64,000 nt of DNA, from the NCBI GenBank assembly GCA_030264375.1, contig JASCQW010000132.1, positions 64,086,403 to 64,150,402 on the forward strand, read 5' to 3'. Source of the DNA: Carcharhinus longimanus. Taxonomy: Eukaryota. Positions 1 through 64,000 of the stretch are shown in pieces (position 1 is the stretch's first letter; every line of letters starts with the position of its first letter). Position numbers and translations under genes: made by a program. Under the pieces are notes generated by a model, which saw only the letters and a list, made by a program, of their open reading frames with translations, made no database searches and had not been told where the DNA came from.

Positions 1-449
1 GCCGGGGGCAGGGGGCGGTGTTCAGGGAGAGCCAGGGGCAGGAGGCGGTGTTCAGGGAGAGCCGGAAGCAGGGGCCGGTGTTCAGGGAGAGCCGGGGGCA
101 GTGTTCAGTTAGAGCCAGCAGCAGGGGGCGGTGTTCAGTTAGAGCTGGTAGCAGGGGGCGCTGTTCAGGGAAAGCCGGCAGCTGGGGCGGTGTCCAGAGA
201 AAGCCGGCAGCAGGGGGTGGTGTGCAGGGAGGGCTGGCAGCAGGGGGCTCTGTCCAGAGAGAGTTGGCAGCAGGGGATGGTGTTCAGGGAGAGCCAGAAG
301 CAGGGGGCGGTGTTCAGGGAGATCTAGAAGCAGGGGGCGGTGTTCAGGGAGATCTAGAAGCAGGGGGCGGTGTTTGGGGAGAGCCGGCAGCAGGGGGCAG
401 TATTCAGGGAGAGCTGGCAGCAGTGGATGGTGTTCAGGGAGAGCCGGCT
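1..449. repeat. G-rich 30-bp minisatellite (consensus ~gccggcagcagggggcggtgttcagggaga), ~15 degenerate copies, runs off the window start
   Basis: Unit visibly repeats at 1, 31, 61, etc.; ORF 18..488 is just the translated repeat. Confidence 0.95.
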
Positions 450-45631: not shown

Positions 45632-46162
45632 TTCTGTAGAAGGGTGATAGGGACTCGAAACGCCAACTCTCTTCCTTTGCGCCGATGCTGCCAGCCCTCC
45701 TGAGTTTTTTCAGCATTTTCTGATTTTACTATATAATCTTAAAGTGGCCTTGGAGCATTTCTTAAGATTTGTCCTCAGATTGATTGCTTTGAACTGGAGT
45801 TTCACTGCAGAATCTTTCAATGACCTAGAAGGATTGAATTGATATTCATGACAGAAGCAAATTACGCAGTTGCTGAATATGAAACCAAAAGAGAAAAGGC
45901 TGGAAAATCTCAGCAGGTTTGGCAGCATCTGCAAGGAGAGAAAAGAGCTGACGTTTTGAGTCCAGATGACCCTTTGNNNNNNNNNNNNNNNNNNNNNNNN
46001 NNNNNNNNNNNNNNNNNNNNNNNNNNNNNNNNNNNNNNNNNNNNNNNNNNNNNNNNNNNNNNNNNNNNNNNNNNNNCTGGAAAATCTCAGCAGGTTTGGC
46101 AGCATCTGCAAGGAGAGAAAAGAGCTGACGTTTTGAGTCCAGATGACCCTTTGTTAAAGCTG
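45632..46162. mobile_element. Two short Penelope-derived repeats in inverted orientation (45632-45728 plus; 45885-46162 minus, duplicated across the gap)
   Basis: aagggt...ggactcgaaacg...gatgctgcca...ctgagttttt.cagcatttt and its reverse complement. Confidence 0.65.
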
Positions 46163-47259
46163 GCAAAGCATATTCATGATTGTGATCATAATGCTATCTT
46201 CCACTCAGAGTAGCAATCTTTAATTACTTCCATTGGTATGAATTCAATATTCTCTTTGTTAACCCCCTGCTGTTCTTTACCACTCCAAATTGTTTGAAGG
46301 CCAGTTTCCCATATCCTGTGTCTTTGCGTTCACCCATCACCCCACACTCAGATTAGCACTACCCCTCTGATGCCAAATACATCAAATTTAAAACATTTTT
46401 CCTCATCTATCCTGCCTCTACAACCTCCTGTGCCCTTGGCATTTTATGTCAGCCCCCTGTTTTTTGTTCTGTTTCTTACGGCCAAATCTTTACCATTCAT
46501 TCAGACCTCCTGTCCTCTTCCCTAAATCTTTGTTTCTTTACTCTTTCTACCTGTAGAACTTCTTCATTCCACCTTTTCAGCCCGAGTATTATTCTTATGC
46601 TTTTGTCTTGCCTTGCCATCTACTCCTTTATTTCTTTTAATGTTCCTCTATCACTGTCGCCTCCTCCTTGTAACAATGAATCTTGGAATGCTTTTTACAT
46701 TAAAGGCATTTGAAATGCAAGTTAACATAAAAGTGTTGCAAAATGCAGCCATAAGAGGAAAAAAAATCTAATGCCATACTTCCCAAGCTATTGTCTGATG
46801 TGGCCCCATTTTAACAGTTGAAAATTAACCTGACCCTCACACACCAACAAAATCAAAATTGAAAATAAAGCAGCATAGTGACATTCAGCATATAATTATC
46901 AATGTTTGCATGTTATAAATCAACATTGCATAGATACACAAGTCTATGCTTTTAAGTACTTTGTAGAAGTGCTATTATTTTATATACTCATAGGTTTCAG
47001 CCAAGCTTTCCATATTTCCCAATAACAGAAGTCTCCATGTACCCTGACACACAACTTACGCTCATGCACTTTAATCATACTCCCATGCATGCATGCATAC
47101 TGTAATCAGCCCCTCTTTCGCGCCCCCCCCCCCCCCCCCCCCCCCCCCGCAAACACACACAATTAAATTGCTCCTCTTCACCCCTCCACGTACATAATGA
47201 TGAGCCCCTCCATCACCACATATTAGTTGGATGGATGGACGGACCACCTAGCATCAGCA

Positions 47260-54400: not shown

Positions 54401-56460
54401 GATCCTATCTATGATAAAGCACTAAGCTTGATATTTTTCTGATCAGCTAATTTTACTTGTGACAGTATCAGAATTATTAGTTTCATAAATTTTTTGGGAA
54501 TTTTAAGAGGCTTTTTTCTTGCTTAACTATTCAGTAGCATAATCTGCCATTTATTCCTTCTAAATGTATTTTAGCTTGAATCAAGAAACAAGGATATTGA
54601 ACTTTAAGAAACAATCTGGAATGGGCATTGAGACGCTGGGTCATCAAGATTAACTGAGGAAACCATTGCTAGTGGCAATTGTAAAGTTGTCTAGGAGACC
54701 ATCCAGTCTTATTCTTCCATAAAAGCTTACAGTACTGTCAACCTGTTTCCCAGATCCAGCATCTAGTGATCTCTTAAATGATTCTAGAGGAAAGTGGTCG
54801 ACAGTTTTTATTCAAATAGGGGAAATCTTTGGAAGAAGTTATTATTTTGTTTTAATGCTTGTGTGTCTGAATATAAAACAGCATATATAAGTGTATAATT
54901 CATGGTAAGTAATTAATGTATGTTGCAGACTACTAAAGTCAATGGAGCATCATTGTAACATTGTGATATTTTGGCACTAAATAGTTATTTAAGTATTACA
55001 AGTTATTTTTCATGTATGTTAGCCACTTTGAATGTAATTAATGGAATTTTTAATCAGCTTCGAAGTGAGAGACCATCATTGTTGCCCCCACACACCTAAT
55101 GCGCTCCTCAGAAGTGGCACTAATGCACAAAATTTACATGGTTTGGAAATTGCTGCTTCTCAGTAATCATTTCAATGTTTCATCTGATAATAACACACCT
55201 CTGACCATGTAGCACTTCTTTAGTACGGCACTCGATTGTTTGCTTAGATTGTATGCTGAAGCCTCTGCAGTGGGACTTGAATCCACAACTTTCTTACTGT
55301 GAGGTGAAAGTATGAGCAAATTTCATGTACTCTATAAATGTTAAAGTTATAAGGCAGAAATTGAAGATGGCTGTCAGGCTTACAAATCTAATTGCTGGGA
55401 GGTTCCTTTTGACTTTGAATTCTAAACATTACTTATTTGTTAATCCTGGCAGAAAGACTTCGATTTGGAAGGATAAATGATACCATCCAATGGATTATTC
55501 AATCAGAGGAGGTATTAAGCCATGAATATATTTTCTTTTGTTGCAAACAATTTGGCATACCTCAGGGCTGTTCAACAGCCAGTGGGAAATTTGACCTGAG
55601 AGACAAATTGATCTTTATCAGGCATGAAAAACGAAGGGAGAGAGGGAACAAAAGTGTTAGAAACTGGGTTGTTCTTGTTGATATGAAATGCAAAGCCAGT
55701 GCTACCTTATTGCATTGACTGATGTCAAAGACATAACATAGAATGAAAGATCAGGCCTTAACAGCAGTCATTGTATCAGAGATTAATTTTTTTTTAGAAG
55801 TAAATCTCATTATTTGACATGGAATCTGAGCTTGGTGCAATTGCAGTGCATTGACAACACCATCTTCCTGAGTGGTTTGGAGATAAACAAGATGCATTGG
55901 ATCTTAATGATCTAAGAGTGTGAGGATAGGAAGAATGTGAGATAGCTGCTTGGGCAATAAAGTCATAAGACTGCAACATCTGGTTTGTCAGGGCATAAGA
56001 TCCATATGTAGAAAGTGGCATGACAGTGGTCACAATTTATAGCCCAGTAATTTGATGATCCACCATATCCACTTGTGTCTCTTATGGAGAGAAAAGCAGC
56101 AGTACTTTTATTTGGAAAGTAGCATTTGCAAAGATTTGGGAATGAATTTGTTTCTGAAGCATGTGTGACCATGGAAAAAAATCAATTTCAAAATGAGGTA
56201 TGGGAGGGGAAAAAAAGAATTGGGATGAACTAAAACCCAAAACATCTTGTCAGTGACCAGATTAACTTTATTGGGCACATTTTGACTTGGAGAAAATCAA
56301 AGGCTTCTGCAGTACTTTGTTCAGGTTATGTTTTTTCACAAACTAGTGAAACCTAATGCCCTTTGACAGCCTATTACCCAATTTCTCAACTGTCCCTTTA
56401 CAGAATTTCCAGCTACATTCTATCCTTCAATCTCCACAAGAAGATCATTATTGACGCACC

Positions 56461-56834
56461 ATGAAGATCAATGTGAAACGCAAATGGAGCTGGCTTGGGA
56501 AGAGCTGTATTCTGATCAGCTTATTGTGGATTACTTATGTCATCTTAGAACTGTCAATCTCCACTTTTCGCAGCTCTGCTGGACAGAGCAGTGGTGAGGA
56601 GAGGAAGTACAGAGCCATTTCTAATCAGCAAAGTGAGGATCTATCACGCCCAGTGTATGAGAAACCTGATGTTGATCTGCGTAGTCCAGGGGAGCTGGGT
56701 AAGGCTGTGCATTTGCAGCTGAATGCTGATGAGAAAAAGAAAGAGGAGGAGAGTATTGAGAGATACGCTATAAATGTTTATGTAAGTGATAAAGTATCGC
56801 TGCATCGCCACATCCAAGATGATCGGATGCCTGA
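56461..56834 (+). CDS. GALNT4: Polypeptide N-acetylgalactosaminyltransferase 4, first coding exon (cytoplasmic tail, TM anchor, stem); exon acceptor AG at 56402-56403
   Basis: WSWLGKSCILISLL..Y...EL..STF..SAG, EDLSRPVYEKP, GELGKA..LQLN.DE, IERYAINVYVSDKVSLHRHIQD.RM.E closely match recalled human GALNT4; Kozak gcaccATG; donor GA|GTAAGT, phase 2. Confidence 0.92.
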
Positions 56835-56876
56835 GTAAGTGCTTTTCGAACTTGTAGTAGACCATGCATAATTATT

Positions 56877-57174
56877 CATAGAATCCCTACAGTGCAGAAG
56901 AGGCCATTCAGCCCATCGAGTCTGCGCCAACCACAATCCCACACAGATCCTATTCCTGTAAACTCTCAGATTGACCCTGCTAATTCTCCTGATAGTAGGG
57001 TTAATTTAACATGGCCAATGCACCTAACCTGCACATCTTTGGAGTGTGGGAGGAAACCGGAGCACCCGGAGGAAACCCACGCAGACACGGGCAGAACATG
57101 CAGACTCCACACCGACAGTGACACAACCCAGGACCCTGGCGCTGTGAGGCAGCAGTGTAACCACTGCTCCGCCC
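56877..57174 (-). mobile_element. HE1-like tRNA SINE (intronic)
   Basis: Family head and tail; well preserved. Confidence 0.9.
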
Positions 57175-57524
57175 TTTGAAGATAAATGATGGGAGTAAAG
57201 AAACATCTGAGGGAAAATTGGGATTGAGTAAAGGTAGCAAAGAGGCATTAAGAGACATGATAAGCAGTGAGGCAGGAATGGGCAGAGTACAAGCCTAACA
57301 GTACAGCAGTAGATAAGGCTCAGTGATAAGAAAGAGAGATTAAAAGTGCTCTGTCTGAATACACACAGTGCTCACAACAAGGTCAATGAGTTGATGGGAT
57401 AAATCGAAGTAACTGGCTGTGATTATCATTACAAAAACATTTTCCTTTAGTTCCTTCACTGGGTTTGGGCATCGCTGGCTGGGCTGGCATGTTTCGCCCC
57501 GTTTCGAATTGCTCTTGAACTGAG

Positions 57525-58027
57525 CAATTTTTGGGTCCTCCCTCTGAGGAAGGATGCACTGGCTCTGGAGAGGGTCCAGTGAAAATTCACGAGAATGATC
57601 CCGGGAATGAATAGCTCAACGGATGAGGAGCGTTGGAGGGCTCTGGGTCTGTACTCGATGGAGTTTAGAAGGAGGAGGGGGTATCTCATTGAAACTTACC
57701 GAGTACTGAAAGGCCTGGGTCGCATTGGACGTGGGGAAGATGTTTCCATTCGTCTGAGAGATTGGGGTCTGGTGGCACGGCCTCAGAGTAAAGGGACGAT
57801 CCTTTAGAACAGGGATGAGGGGAATTTCTTCAGCCAGGTTTGTGGAATTCATTGCCACAGAGGCTGTGGAGGTCAGGTCATTGAGTGTATTTAAGACAGA
57901 GGTAGACATGTTCTTGATTGGTAGGGGGATCAAAGCTTACGGGGAAAAGGTGGAAGAATGGGGTTGAGAAACGATGGAATGGCGTAGCAGATGCGATGGG
58001 CTGAATGGTCTAATTTAAGGTCTTATG
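57525..58027 (+). mobile_element. CR1 3' fragment nested in a minus-strand SINE (57455-57520 / 58028-58210)
   Basis: ALERVQ..FTRMIPGM...LGLYSMEFRRRRG.LIETY. Confidence 0.85.
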
Positions 58028-58709
58028 AGTGGTTTGCTAGGCCATTTCAGAGGGCATTTAAGAATCGACCACATCGCTGTGAGTCTGGAGTCACACGTAG
58101 ACCAGACTGGGTTAGGAAGGCAAATTTCCTTCCTGCAGGGTGTCAGTGAACCAGTTGCATTTTAATGACAATTGACAATGGCTATTGAATTCAAATGGTG
58201 CCTTTCAAACCCGCTGGGACATTTGTGAAAAGTGCAAGAAAGATGTGAGCACTTTCTGCTGTTTACTTTGTGACATTCAGCAGCTGACTAAAGACATTTG
58301 CCACATTCTGCAGAGCAAAGGAAAATTTGTGACCATGGTTTATAATACATAAAAAAAGAAAAATTTCCTCAAGAGAACAGATGCTCCTTTTAGGACGACA
58401 TTCAAAAGACATTCAAGTCAAAGATGCAGAATATTCGCTGCAGCGAGGTTTCTGGAGCAAACATTTCCAGCAGAATCGGGGGAACTTCCAACGCACCTTG
58501 CCAATTCAATCATGGGCTATTTGCTTTAATATCTTGGGACAATTTCAGAAAGGCAAAACAATAACAGGCTTTATCTTCCCATTTAGAAAGCTAAGGGAAA
58601 TGACTCAAGTATGGTTTTGGTGTGTGAGAGAAGTAATTGAGCTTGTGAGGTACAAGGTTATTTATCTTGTGATCTGGGATGACTGGGCCTAAGCCAGAGT
58701 ACAGATAAG

Positions 58710-58924
58710 AGACACATGTGTGTCTTCACACATGCACACGCACACACACAAACATGTACACACACAAAGACACGCATACACAAACACACATGCACAAACA
58801 CACACATGCGTGCGAAGACACATATACACACACGCACACACATGCAAATGCACACGAGCTCACACACTCACATGAAGACACACCTACACACAAAGCACAC
58901 ACACATGCTCACATCCACACATAC
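58710..58924. repeat. Degenerate (CA)n microsatellite
   Basis: Visible CA-rich run up to the N gap. Confidence 0.95.
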
Positions 58925-59024
58925 NNNNNNNNNNNNNNNNNNNNNNNNNNNNNNNNNNNNNNNNNNNNNNNNNNNNNNNNNNNNNNNNNNNNNNNNNNNN
59001 NNNNNNNNNNNNNNNNNNNNNNNN

Positions 59025-59260
59025 TGGCCAATCCACCTACTCTGCACCTCTTGGGGCAATTTACCATGGCCAATCCACCAAATCTCCACCTCTTGGGGCA
59101 ATTTACCATGGTCAATCCACATAACTTGCACATCTTGGGGCAATTTACCATGGTTAATCCACCCAATTAGCACTTCTTGGGGCAATTTAAAATGGCCAGT
59201 CCACCTAACCTGCACCTCTTGGGGGTAATTCATGCCCAACCTACCTAACCAGCACCTCTT
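59025..59260. repeat. 42-bp tandem repeat derived from an internal SINE segment, ~5.5 copies
   Basis: Unit ~tggccaatccacctaacctgcacctcttggggcaatttacca; 14-aa periodicity in overlapping ORFs. Confidence 0.9.
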
Positions 59261-60557
59261 AGTTGTACAGTAAGAAAGCAGGAAGGTCACCAGGAGTTGA
59301 TCAACTTGATGAATGTAAATAACACAAAACAAAAGAGTGATTTTTCTATTATGTATTGCACCACAGTTTAATGAGGGATGTGTGGACAAATACTAAGGGC
59401 TGGGAAGATGCTGGAGGCTGGTAGTTTAGCTTGAGCGTCGGAAATGCGCGTCCTGTTCAAGGACGAACAATGAACAGCTTCTCATTTGCACAATTCTCAC
59501 GGAACAGTTCAGATTAGCTTCTCAAAGTGACCAGAATTTCAAGGGAAAAAAGTGCAATTACTTACAAAGGGTTAGCTTAATCTCAGGATTGTAAGCTTTC
59601 AACTGTTTCATTCAGCTGGGGTGTTAGATGGAAGAATGTTTAGGAGAAATATAATCATTACGGGATGGCCTTTCTGCCTGAATCGTTTAAAGTTCTGGTG
59701 TGACCTTCTACTGTTTTCAAAGACTGCAGCAAGATCTTCTGGAAGAGTAAATCCTGTGGTTAGAAACAGTTATCAGGCAGGGTTTGCTCATCACATCCTG
59801 AGTACGTTAATGCAAGCTTATCAAGATTCCTGAGCACTTGTTCAACATACGGGGCAGATGACATAGTCCTCGTACTCTTCCTTTTCATCTGTTATATGTG
59901 GTGAGTGAAAAACAGTCCCCCAGTCCAGTGATGAGTAACCTAGGCTAGTGAGTGGGCTGCAAGATTGAAATCAGGCTTGTTCATCTAACCATGGCCCCAC
60001 GAGTAAGATCCAATATGTTTAATACACTCTGAATAGTTCATAACGAGTTATGGAAAATACTTAATCGTTTATATATATATATCATTTATATATTAATTGA
60101 ACTGTCATCAACTTCAAATAGGAAAAGCAAAATAACTATTTACACTTTGGCCGCAGAGAGAGCGCACGGCTGTCACAGTCAATTTTGCGAGCGGTCAGCA
60201 CGTACCTCACTTCATTAGCTCTTGCTTTACATGCGAAACGCTTCAGTCACACCAAAAGGAAAAAAAAACTACATGGAAGGGAATCAGCAGAATGTGGCAG
60301 CCCTGCACGTGGGCAACGGTCAACAAACTGTCTCGTGGACTTCACTCAGACTCAGGGTGAGCCACACTCAGGCCTCAGACTCCAGATTGCCCACCACAGC
60401 CTTAGCTGGATTCCTGCCCCTCTTTTTCCCTTCAGTTCCAATTTCTAATCTTAACTTCTGTATTGCTAATTTATCCCTCTGTGTTCTCAATTTTCACCTC
60501 TAGATGTTTCGACGCCCATTTTAGAATTTCCTGACTTTCGGGCACCACTTAACCTCT

Positions 60558-60812
60558 AGTTTGCACATTCTCCCCGTGTCTGCGTGGGTTTCCTCCGGGT
60601 GCTCCGGTTTCCTCCTATAGTCTAAAGAAGTTATGGGCTAGGTTGATTGGCCATTCTAAATTGCCCCTTAGCGTCCCAGGATGCATAGGTTAGAGGGATT
60701 ATTGGGTAAATATGTAGGGATATGAGGATAGGGCCTGGATGGGATTGTGACTGGTGCAGACTAGATGGGCCAAGTGGCCTCTTTCTGCACTGTAGGATTC
60801 TATGATTCTATG
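60558..60812 (+). mobile_element. 5'-truncated HE1-like SINE
   Basis: tttgcacattctccccgtgtctgcgtgggtttcctccggg...ctgcactgtaggattctatgattctat. Confidence 0.88.
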
Positions 60813-61487
60813 TGTCTAACCGATTCCTCCAAGGACAGTACCCTTCACTTCTGGCCAGTCATCTCATCCTCATCTTACTCTATGAAAGCATTGACATCAA
60901 ATGTGGACATTATTATTATAGACCCGTGTTTTTAAATGTTGTTTGAAGAAACAATTTACTTTCTACACATGCACAAAAACACACACACGTACACGCGCAC
61001 ACACATGCAGAGGAAGTTAAAGTCCAATAAAAAGAAGTTAAAAGAATATAGTGTTAAGTGCCCTTTGCTTGTCCTTGGGATGTATACATTAGACATTGCG
61101 GCCTATTTAGGTTGGCTGGATTCTTGGGTGCCATCAGACGTAGATGATGTTTCAATTATTATGAGGTCTCAGTTTGCTGATAGGCTTCTCAAACTGGTGA
61201 CTCAGGCTTTTCCAAAAAGAGAGAGAGAGAGAGGGAGAGAGCCCAGCTCTTCACCCGGTTTCCTGTGTTGAAAACCTTCTTCATACTACCTGTGTCACTT
61301 GCAATATCTTTGCGGTGGCTGCACCCTAGCCCATTATACTTCACCCATTGTAAATCTCCAAATACTTCAGGTAGGGATATCTGTGGCAGTCATTGCTAAA
61401 ATATCTAGCACTTCACATTTTTGTATCTTTTCCTTAGCCAGTGATTAGTTTCAATGGATCTTTGAACTATAGAACATATCCCTCTCT

Positions 61488-61781
61488 TGGCACAGTGGTT
61501 AGCACTGCAGTCTCACAGCACCAAGGACCCAAGTTTGCTTCCTGGCTTGGGTCACTGTCTGTGTGGAGTCTACACGTTCTCCCTGTGTCTGTGTGGGTTT
61601 CCTCCGGGTGCTCCAGTTTCCTCCCACAGTTTGAAAGATATGCTGGTTAGGTGCATTGGCCATGCTAAATTCTCCCTCAGTGTAACAGACACCAGAGTTT
61701 CGCAACTAGGGGATTTTCACCGTAACTTCATTGCAGTGTTAATGTAAGCTGACTTGTGACACTAACAAGAAAACTTTAAAC
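61488..61781 (+). mobile_element. tRNA SINE with HE1-like head and alternative tail (same tail at 37614-37765)
   Basis: Tail cacagtaacttcattgcagtgttaatgtaagc..acttgtgac.ctaa...aaacttt. Confidence 0.8.
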
Positions 61782-62104
61782 TCCCGTGAGGGTGTCTTAT
61801 TTACTTTTACATCTCCACCTTGGAAGTTGGCCTTGTATTTTTAAGTAGTTAATTCTGTCTCACTTCCAACCTGTTGAAAGTTGAAATTTTTTTTTTCAAA
61901 GTTAAAGGGACTTAGCCATGTGACACATGCCAAGGTGACAGGTTGGGTGCCCACTGGCATGATTAAATGAAGGGTGCCTGCTCCAGTGATCTAGGATAAA
62001 GCACCAATCTATCATGCAAAGAGATTGAGAAAATGAGGTCAGAATAGAAAATGCTAGAAAATCTCAGCAGGTCTGGCAGCATCTGTAAGGAGAGAAATAA
62101 GGAA

Positions 62105-62415
62105 AGTCTGCACTGACTCACTCCAAAAGGGCATCTTACCCAGGCCCCCTCCACGCCCTATCCTGCAACCCCAAATCTTTACCATGACTAATCCATCTAA
62201 CCTACAGATCTTGAGACACCAAGGAGCAATTTAGCATGGCCAATCCCACCTAAGGTGTACATCTTTGGACTGTGGGAGGAAACTGGAGAGCCGGAGGAAA
62301 CCCACACAGATACAAGGAGTATGTGCAAACTTCAAGTAATCACCCAAAGCCGGAATTGAACCCGAGTCCCTGGTGCTGTGAGGCAGCAGTGCTAAACACT
62401 GTCGCCGTGCTGCCC
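62105..62415 (-). mobile_element. HE1-like tRNA SINE
   Basis: Family head ending ...gccgtgctgccc. Confidence 0.85.
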
Positions 62416-63378
62416 AGTTATCAAAGAGAAATGCGCAAATTTGTTTTAAGTTTGCTAGCCTTGACTCTGCCCCAAAGGACTGTGGAGGCTTCATCATTTT
62501 TGTACCAATGAAGAATCATAGTCAAAAACACTACTAACTGTTGCTACCTCATAGCTGTGCGCATGGGCATAGTATTTTATTTATTTTCATTGGTACGGAG
62601 CAAACAATTCAAATTAATATTAAGAATGCAACTATTAAAATTGATCTAATTTCACTGAAATAGGTGCATTTTCAAATTAATTTTATTATTGATAACTAAA
62701 TCTGATTGAATTTCTTATCTGAGGGCTTATTAGTATTTTATTTTATTATAGTTTGAAGAAACATTTCTATTTTGTTTCTTTTTTGCTATTCACCATTCCC
62801 TGAGCAAGCAGACAGGTCAACAATTTGATCCTAATATTGCTCAGTAATGGGTTGCAAGGAAACATACAAGAGCAGTCAGTGGCATCTGATGTAATGGCCT
62901 CTGTCAATTTCCTTTATTCATTTAACTTCCGCCTTGTGGATGAGTATCTCCACTTCAATATGTGTTTGAGAATGAGAATGCAATGCGTGAAGACTTGCTG
63001 CCATGAACCCGATTTTATCACATTCCATTGTGCAGTGTGCTGTAATACAAATCTGTTACACAGTGTGGTATTATTTAGTTATCTCCCTGCTTTCCCTACT
63101 TCAGCTATTTTCTCCACAGTAGTCATGCTTGATGTTGAAGATGGAAATGCTCATGTTTTTTAATCCTTGATTGTTGTTCCTACAGCAGAATTAGGCATTA
63201 TTTACAAACTGGGAGATTTCTGGCTTCTTGTTAGCTCAATAATAATTTAGGTAGTTAGTGAAAGTATTCCATAACTCAAAACTGCAATGATGCTTAGTTG
63301 GCCTTGTGAGCTTTGTCTTAAAGCTATTTATAATTACTATGATTTGCTTGATCATGTGGAAATTCTGCTTCATTTCAG

Positions 63379-63548
63379 GTGCAAGTCTAAACAGTTCAAT
63401 TATAGGAAACTTCCTACCACTTCTGTCGTTATTGCATTTTATAATGAGGCCTGGTCTACACTTCTCCGCACAATTCACAGTGTACTGGAAACATCTCCTG
63501 CTGTTCTTCTTAAAGAACTCATTCTCGTTGATGACTATAGTGATCGAA
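63379..63548 (+). CDS. GALNT4: GALNT4 second coding exon (start of GT-A catalytic domain); gene continues beyond the window
   Basis: ttcatttcag|G TGC...: [56 protein letters not shown]; donor A|GTAAGG, phase 1; 170 bp; joins the first coding exon in frame (GA+G=Glu). Confidence 0.95.
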
Positions 63549-64000
63549 GTAAGGACATTAACTATTTTTAGTGTAGTTCTGCCTTTGCAATATTTTCAGA
63601 CTGAGAGTACCATCACGTGATGTGGTTAATTATAACCCTAGCCCCTTTTTGGGACAATCCTGGTTCAGGTGCATCTCTCAGATGATCCTTCTCAATGTCA
63701 GGTCAAGAAAGACAGATCCCAAAGAAGTTAAAGGGAGAGATGCTATCTCTCCCCAAAAGAAAGTAGCCCATTGAGTTTAATATCATTCTCCAGATAGCCT
63801 TTTTAACAAGTTCAGACAGATAATATTCTGGATATCATGAGGGTTTGGAAGATCTCTCCTAAGTAATGTACATCCCACCAAAGAGTTTCCCATGAGTTCA
63901 CGAGTTAGCAATACAGAAAACTGTTTCTCGTGCAACGTGTGGTATTGACTTGAAACTCGCTGCATACAAGGATGATGGAAGCCGTGACAATAATTTCAAA

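Follow-up and report, generated by a model that had tools for sequence, protein, structure and literature searches.

The window analysed here, a 64,000-nucleotide stretch of Carcharhinus longimanus DNA, carries towards its end the start of an intact GALNT4 gene (gene A). When spliced from genomic DNA, gene A has ten coding exons and encodes 579 aa. Exons 3–10 lie past the window end, where the window numbering is simply continued (position on contig C132 = number + 64,086,402; see the table). The initial annotation had described two exons joined by a phase-2 GT-AG intron, with a second intron of phase 1, and the complete gene bears this out. Its start was not a chance arrangement, because eight further exons complete one reading frame of 1,740 nt in which 9/9 introns have GT-AG ends. 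Exon 1 closes with a GTAAGT donor, exon 2 is bounded by an AG acceptor and a GTAAGG donor, and the peptides of the two exons cover residues 4–121 and 124–179 of human GALNT4 (PDB 5NQA) contiguously. Exon 10 contains one 100-N gap, which was closed via a 4-base overlap of its flanks. An acceptor-like site at 56404, 57 bp 5' of the ATG, would imply an upstream non-coding exon. The best transcript-sized run contains 0.82 of the words from 56380–56900, with 0.817 expected for an exon start at 56404 and 0.866 for unspliced sequence, a weak distinction.

Splicing was followed in contigs from sequencing runs that we took to be RNA by guess, their records bearing no RNA label. Exon joints 3–4 and 4–5 are spliced in contigs from all four runs, and the 3' end of exon 2 is joined to exon 3 in the X2, X6 and X11 contigs. 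The exon 1–2 joint is supported indirectly: contigs containing exon 3 reach 668–888 nt upstream of it, compared with the 601 nt that exons 1 and 2 make up, and the RefSeq zebra-shark and whale-shark proteins have this joint at the identical place.

Table. Features of the GALNT4–GALNT12 locus in window numbering
Feature	Position	Strand	Remarks
Probable 5' UTR part of first coding exon	56404–56460	+	pyrimidine tract and CAG ending at 56403
Gene A exon 1 (374 nt), encoding the cytosolic tail, a predicted transmembrane helix and the stem	56461–56834	+	begins with the ATG; 131.5 bits with human GALNT4, 38.8 with GALNT12
Gene A intron 1, 6,544 bp, GT-AG, phase 2	56835–63378	+	column and phase shared with intron 1 of gene B
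Gene A exon 2 (170 nt), in which the GT-A catalytic domain begins	63379–63548	+	97.2 bits to GALNT4 vs 83.3 to GALNT12; PF00535
Gene A intron 2, start (whole intron 2,760 bp, phase 1)	63549–64000	+	remainder past window
Gene A exon 3	66309–66498	+	past window
Gene A exon 4	66898–67083	+	past window
Gene A exon 5	68263–68380	+	past window
Gene A exon 6	77240–77416	+	past window
Gene A exon 7	78768–78899	+	past window
Gene A exon 8	80276–80386	+	past window
Gene A exon 9	83381–83533	+	past window
Gene A exon 10	89096–89328	+	past window; 100-N gap inside
Gene B = GALNT12, 10 coding exons, 592 aa	97500–150330	+	past window; start in CpG island

Identity of gene A and its neighbour

The proposal that the gene is GALNT4 and not GALNT12 was upheld by each of the four exons tested, which span the protein from N-terminus to lectin domain and all score higher with human GALNT4. 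Exon 6 gave 115.3 bits with GALNT4 against 85.9 with GALNT12, and exon 9 gave 70.4 bits with the GALNT4 lectin region and no GALNT12 match at E<=0.001. Gene A is 90.5% identical over 580 columns to the RefSeq zebra-shark GALNT4 XP_059511227.1, itself scoring 1039.9 bits with GALNT4 and 690 with GALNT12. In trees whose GALNT4 rows were shark, frog and other GALNT4-type records, human GALNT4 being left out, the two shark proteins grouped with support of 99/99, and the exon-1 tree joined gene A with a frog GALNT4-type record (95/89). Immediately downstream, a separate GALNT12 gene (gene B) starts 8,171 bp after the gene A stop, on the same strand. Both gene B exons tested favour GALNT12 over GALNT4 (exon 1, 77.3 vs 51.9 bits; exon 9, 49.7 vs 23.4 bits), the protein is 73.6% identical to beaver GALNT12, and it clusters with four GALNT12-type proteins of bony vertebrates (support 98/98). 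Nearer to human GALNT4 wherever tested, and with GALNT12 present beside it, gene A is thus placed as a GALNT4 orthologue. Its position at the GALNT12 locus and its GALNT12 introns could also be read as signs of a shark-specific GALNT12 duplicate merely resembling GALNT4, but the exon scores, the exon-1 tree and the grouping of bony-vertebrate GALNT12 with gene B rather than gene A leave this reading with hardly any credibility.

Gene A belongs to family GT27: a DxH motif lies at residue 229 and a WGGEN motif at residue 336, exon 2 matches PF00535, and both PF00535 and PF00652 are found on the 90.5%-identical P0049. A hydrophobic stretch at about residues 17–33, aligned to human GALNT4, may be the type II membrane anchor. 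The predicted product is a polypeptide GalNAc-transferase that would reside in the Golgi as a type II membrane protein, with a GT-A domain (DxH), a ricin-type lectin domain and a presumably GALNT4-like preference. At the substrate-binding positions given in PMC6789641, gene B retains the equivalents of W262, N270, P366-K367, R373 and D460/Y477/H480/N485, whereas gene A, like human GALNT4, has the GALNT4-type Arg next to the loop Lys, and Gln in place of N270. The names offered by the ESM Atlas were automatic GALNT-like cluster labels that do not separate T4 from T12.

As a gene, this GALNT4 is not new. The initial annotation had cautioned that novelty would fall if a multi-exon GALNT4 were already documented outside mammals, and the caution applies: the shark gene carries the GALNT4 name in RefSeq, and intron 1 is present in frog and other vertebrate records.

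A tandem pair, probably old

All nine introns of gene A occupy the same alignment columns, in the same phases, as those of gene B, and the two proteins are 60% identical. The GALNT12 exon structure ascribed to gene A at the outset is therefore real, and adjacent, co-oriented genes with 9/9 introns in common constitute a tandem duplicate pair, in agreement with the suggestion that GALNT4 arose as an intron-containing duplicate. Identical codons were found at 105 of 227 synonymous codon pairs between A and B. Gene conversion in exon 5 was considered and is not established (p=0.012 at one post-hoc window size, 0.06–0.39 at three others).

Human-type GALNT12 synteny is partial at the shark locus. 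A GBR2_CC match lies 1.27 Mb downstream on C132; none of the eight endostatin matches from the genome search is on this contig, and an ankyrin motif scan over 664 kb found none. ANKS6 and COL15A1 were looked for as neighbours of the shark pair and not found. GALNT12 synteny had been named in advance as evidence against a GALNT4 identity. The location did turn out to be that of GALNT12, but with GALNT12 itself as the adjacent gene this leaves the identity intact.

The initial annotation had also entertained gene A as an ohnolog. If GALNT4 and GALNT12 were products of whole-genome duplication brought side by side later, their deep divergence, seen in the protein identity and the synonymous codons, and the presence of both genes in sharks and bony vertebrates would be expected. 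However, the genes are not in separate paralogous blocks, as ohnologs should be, but adjacent on one contig, 8.2 kb apart on one strand, and the POC1/ATP2B blocks have no nearby GALNT among the matches listed. The pairing is also possibly repeated in a second lineage, as hinted by one GALNT4-type and one GALNT12-type exon-1 record, for both of which the longest contig is 46,962 bases. We consider the ohnolog origin very improbable, and old tandem duplication is the best reading. Which copy is the more ancestral-like was also asked: a preference for GALNT4 was not upheld, since outgroup proteins disagree (GALNT4 vs GALNT12 states 31/19 in one, 17/27 in sea urchin and 14/14 in a third).

Origin of the intronless mammalian gene

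Mammalian GALNT4 sits inside a POC1B intron, and human is not known to have a second GALNT4. In the shark, C72 and C162 carry POC1 copies, each with an ATP2B C-terminal match alongside, and none is on C132. Searching the POC1B/DUSP6 block (C72:8.13–8.33 Mb, which has gaps) with A and B by tblastn gave no GALNT match, and no GALNT is near the POC1/ATP2B blocks of C72 and C162 among the matches listed. The shark therefore shows the arrangement expected in an outgroup of an orphan retrogene, namely a multi-exon orthologue at another locus and an empty POC1B site, in a gapped block where POC1B exons 1–2 were not located. The tblastn check proposed at the outset returned the separate GALNT12 described above and, in this one shark genome, no intronless GALNT4 copy, the longest open frames of the other matches being 152 and 153 aa.

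We regard it as probable that gene A is a spliced GALNT4 in tandem 8.2 kb before GALNT12, an old local duplicate and the likely parent of intron-free mammalian GALNT4, as the initial annotation had suggested in naming the parental form as one of its options. This reading builds on the gene structure, the identities of A and B, their tandem position, several spliced junctions and the GALNT-free shark POC1B block. One ancestral gene would have been duplicated in place before the shark/bony-vertebrate split, and by that split the pair would already have diverged in its substrate-binding residues. Later, probably after the frog lineage had left, a spliced GALNT4 mRNA may have been reverse-transcribed into the POC1B intron. 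With the multi-exon parent subsequently lost, the retrogene would have been orphaned, and GALNT12 would be its closest human relative that still has introns. Mammalian GALNT4 is thus likely an orphan retrogene of a gene A-type GALNT4 parent, not of GALNT12.

Introns had originally been supposed to have been lost later in the lineage leading to mammals. Retroposition to POC1B followed by loss of the parent is the preferred reading of this, because the shark POC1B block is without GALNT. The mammalian gene could instead be the original locus, moved into POC1B by DNA transposition or rearrangement and stripped of introns by recombination with its own cDNA. This, by our inference, takes two rare events (the move and the loss of nine coding introns) as opposed to one for retroposition, and we think it quite unlikely.

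The timing after frogs is inferred from records of other vertebrates. Ten of eleven GALNT4-type N-terminal records end or diverge exactly at intron 1 and the eleventh does so at intron 2; the frog data are one record and one intron (KAG9462903.1, GALNT4-type, ending at intron 1). Alternatively, the tandem origin may hold while the retrocopy predates the frog–amniote split and long coexisted with its parent, so that frogs or fishes have both. The fragment library, clustered at 50%, hides full-length intronless copies, and our search for them covers one shark genome, so frogs or fish may hold a retrocopy as well. On the other hand, the shark has no intronless copy and our data give no sign of one among frogs or fishes, and we judge the older retrocopy to be unlikely, though less so than the moved locus. 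Our fuller proposal is tentative, and we hold it with rather less than even confidence: that human GALNT4 is an orphan retrogene absent from existing lists, that the GALNT4/GALNT12 tandem, with distinct binding residues, predates the jawed-vertebrate radiation and was kept in sharks, fishes and frogs, that a POC1B retrocopy replaced the parent in the amniote lineage, and that neither point is in print. We found no literature account of GALNT4 exon evolution or history; the review Bennett 2012, which lay outside the search, may report fish introns.

Relation to known genes and retrogenes

GALNT4 and GALNT12 are medically studied enzymes, and the pair corrects their family history: GALNT4 is a sister as old as GALNT12 and not a young GALNT12 offshoot. 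With the two equally old, the split of tasks between them in mucin-type O-glycosylation is likely at least as old as the shark–human ancestor. Synteny-based orthology will misassign non-amniote GALNT4, and screens relying on chicken or on the nearest human paralogue may miss this likely case of retrogene replacement. The probable parent in shark and frog and the retrogene in mammals offer a natural comparison for how a copy regains parental expression from a new promoter.

Human GalNAc-T4 (GALNT4; PDB 5NQA, 6H0B) is one of the closest known systems, being the best match of each tested exon, of similar length (578 vs 579 aa) and with loop and lectin residues in common. The two differ in gene form: mammalian GALNT4 is 'encoded by an exon' according to PMC8531281, and the human gene is listed with POC1B at 12q21.33 in PMC6862657, whereas gene A has ten coding exons next to GALNT12. 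For zebra-shark XP_059511227.1 the GALNT4 name was assigned by the source and is silent on gene history; the whale-shark GALNT4-like model XP_048448829.1 stops at intron 2. Human GalNAc-T12 (GALNT12; PDB 6PXU) is the closest paralogue of gene A and the orthologue of gene B, and gene A differs from it in having no equivalent of the T12-specific N270 and in its lower score in all tested exons. Retrogene replacement is already known as a process, with 25 human orphan retrogenes (PMC3548309) and 10 families (PMC4772013) described; 'GALNT' occurs 0 times in the main texts of these papers, and the former discarded a few candidates owing to parental paralogues. Like those orphan retrogenes, mammalian GALNT4 would combine an intronless new site, an intron-bearing outgroup orthologue and a vanished parent; unlike the listed ones, its lost parent would have a surviving tandem sister that can be mistaken for the parent.

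Structure of the GALNT4 gene and its tandem neighbor

Re-reading of the sequence bore out the initial annotation of gene A, the GALNT4 gene of the window: two exons, phased as described, on either side of a 6,544-bp GT-AG intron. Eight further exons in the DNA downstream of the window complete the gene, which has GT-AG boundaries at all nine introns and a single reading frame of 579 aa. Exon 10 is interrupted by 100 N, and the sequences on the two sides of this gap share a 4-base overlap. When the gap is closed there, the frame is preserved, and the product aligns end to end with the zebra-shark protein XP_059511227.1. A 100-N gap with duplicated flanks was also seen at 45710-46213; such gaps are assembly artefacts able to make intact exons appear broken. 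The first coding exon of gene A has no CpG island.

A genome search with exon 2 of gene A gave at least 17 matches from at least 25 candidates. The second best match, 82% identical and located 51 kb downstream in the same orientation, belongs to gene B, a GALNT12 gene with 10 coding exons encoding 592 aa. Gene B starts 8,171 bp past the stop of gene A. The two proteins are 60% identical (346/573 columns), and their nine introns agree in alignment column and phase without exception. Because the genes are adjacent and their introns identical, we infer a local duplication. GALNT12 is named as the closest homologue of GALNT4 in PMC8472655. At the DNA level, exon 5 is 85% identical between the genes (61–75% for exons 2–4, 6 and 7), with 18 of 21 consecutive synonymous codons identical. 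Judged from sequence, this likeness could be an old gene-conversion tract; the conversion statistic gave p=0.012 at that window size and was not significant at three other sizes.

Features of the GALNT4/GALNT12 region (numbers above 64000 continue the window numbering downstream; position on C132, contig JASCQW010000132.1, is the number plus 64,086,402, and the window covers 64,086,403-64,150,402 of this contig)
Feature	Position	Strand	Remarks
Gene A coding exon 1	56461-56834	+	
Gene A coding exon 2	63379-63548	+	
Gene A coding exons 1-10		+	374/170/190/186/118/177/132/111/153/129 nt
Gene A exon 5	68263-68380	+	
Gene B	97500-150330	+	exons 1-10: 395/170/190/186/118/177/132/114/156/141 nt
Gene B exon 1	97500-97894	+	CpG island; codes for seven-Gln run in stem
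Gene B exon 5	132135-132252	+	
100-N gap, duplicated flanks	45710-46213		
100-N gap, duplicated flanks	89125-89224		beyond window; the gap in gene A exon 10
GC-rich stretch	1-2000; C132:64,085,000-64,087,000		mostly N gap
R3H-domain gene	upstream	-	presumably NFX1-like
Link-domain gene	upstream		
Exon, presumably CHMP5-like	upstream		no Pfam match
FAST-kinase gene	upstream		
1,105-aa open frame	C132:63,978,253-63,981,567	+	between CHMP5-like and NFX1-like genes; one link domain (PF00193), then ~950 residues without Pfam match
Three further GALNT genes	C132 at 12.7, 50.2-50.3, 61.6-61.7 Mb		58-63% identical to gene A exon 2

The sole GBR2_CC match lies 1.27 Mb downstream of gene B, a position that we take to agree with the human GALNT12 region. 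Against this fit, however, none of eight endostatin matches and none of five TGF_beta_GS matches is on C132, and no ankyrin motif was found in the 664 kb searched. The GC-rich stretch, about 3–4 kb from the long exon of the NFX1-like gene, is probably the promoter of that gene. It may also be a candidate site of a putative non-coding first exon of gene A, with a shared promoter and a 55-kb first intron.

Assignment to GALNT4 and GALNT12

Exon scoring against solved human proteins covered exons 1, 2, 6 and 9 of gene A (4/10) and exons 1 and 9 of gene B (2/10). The initial annotation had called gene A GALNT4 rather than GALNT12, and this assignment held: all four exons scored higher with human GALNT4 (131.5, 97.2, 115.3 and 70.4 bits) than with human GALNT12 (38.8, 83.3 and 85.9 bits, and no match for exon 9), whereas the gene B exons gave 77.3 and 49.7 bits with GALNT12 versus 51.9 and 23.4 with GALNT4. 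Gene A is 90.5% identical to XP_059511227.1, named GALNT4 by RefSeq, which itself scores 1039.9 bits with human GALNT4 versus 690 with GALNT12. Human GALNT4 is much closer to gene A than to gene B. In a 12-row tree without a human GALNT4 row, gene A joined zebra-shark GALNT4 at 99/99, and gene B, not gene A, joined four GALNT12-named rows, those of beaver, owl and trout and UniRef H3DHX7 (presumably pufferfish), at 98/98; the tree speaks for these two branches, not for the place of the outgroup rows.

GALNT4 proteins are Golgi polypeptide GalNAc-transferases, and the gene A product, its motifs and domains intact, is predicted from established family knowledge to be one. Gene B retains the T12 substrate-residue set named in PMC6789641 (offset +8), and gene A has GALNT4-type alternatives at those positions, as in human T4. 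The functional split between GALNT4 and GALNT12 is therefore likely to be older than the shark-human divergence.

Splicing and intron positions in other vertebrates

Twenty of 22 listed runs contain part of gene A exon 1, and none of the 22 is recorded as RNA. Four of these runs (four organisms, four studies) were assembled on gene A exons 3–5. The 399-bp and 1,179-bp introns were skipped at GT..AG in all four, and intron cover was limited to a short repeat. Among the loose ends listed, the exon 2–3 and 5–6 joints of gene A appeared in three of the four runs and the exon 4–5 and 5–6 joints of gene B in two; the joints observed directly do not include exon 1–2 of gene A.

An exon 1 search of the protein library, which is clustered at 50% so that full-length intronless copies would be hidden, gave 46 matches, 29 of which were examined. 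Of 11 GALNT4-type records, ten either end or lose all likeness to GALNT4 precisely at intron 1, running on into unrelated sequence in the latter case; the remaining one, a whale-shark model, breaks in this way at intron 2. One GALNT4-type record, KAG9462903.1, comes from the frog Eleutherodactylus coqui. In an exon-1 tree that left out two GALNT4-type records, one further record groups with sharks and six form their own branch (94/96) inside the GALNT4 clade (95/89); our guess is that these six are ray-finned fish. The library records P0011 (GALNT4-type) and P0014 (GALNT12-type) are both from ENA, and for each the longest contig measures 46,962 bases; this shared value may hint at the same tandem in another lineage. 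P0058, P0023, P0025, P0027 and P0029 are distant GALNT4/12 relatives. Because the short ones stop at the same intron-1 position, this intron is likely older than the GALNT4/GALNT12 duplication.

Origin of the single-exon GALNT4

The initial annotation had raised the possibility that gene A is the retained parent of the intronless gene. In genome searches with exons 2, 6 and 9 (at least 25, 26 and 6 candidates scored), genes A and B took the top two places for every exon. Gene B is the separate GALNT12, and no intronless GALNT4 copy was among the candidates listed, none of which had an open frame over 153 aa. On C72, another contig of this genome, SCF (KITLG) lies at 6.93 Mb and an ATP2B C-terminus at 8.13 Mb, followed by WD40 exons of a gene that we take to be POC1-like and by a DUSP with a narrow preference for DUSP6/PYST1 (132.7 bits) over DUSP7 (126.6). 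Tblastn of genes A and B over the 200-kb POC1B block gave no match; the block is gapped (largest 680 N in the first 60 kb), and POC1 exons 1–2 were not found in it. The other POC1 copy is on a third contig, C162, next to another ATP2B.

Mammalian GALNT4 is described as single-exon (PMC8531281) and placed at the POC1B locus (PMC6862657; PMC6072381). Given these two features, the closeness of human GALNT4 to gene A and the empty shark POC1B block, the simplest path would be that a spliced GALNT4 mRNA was retroposed and that the parent gene was then lost. The two-exon observation is real and well supported, and the tandem GALNT12 makes it tell more than it did at first reading. Going by search listings, no account of GALNT4 exon evolution was found in the literature. 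Orphan retrogenes have already been described as a class (PMC3548309; PMC4772013), and 'GALNT' is absent from the main texts of both papers. The gene A locus is probably the preserved parental locus and mammalian GALNT4 an orphan retrogene, a case of a known kind with its parental locus kept in a shark.
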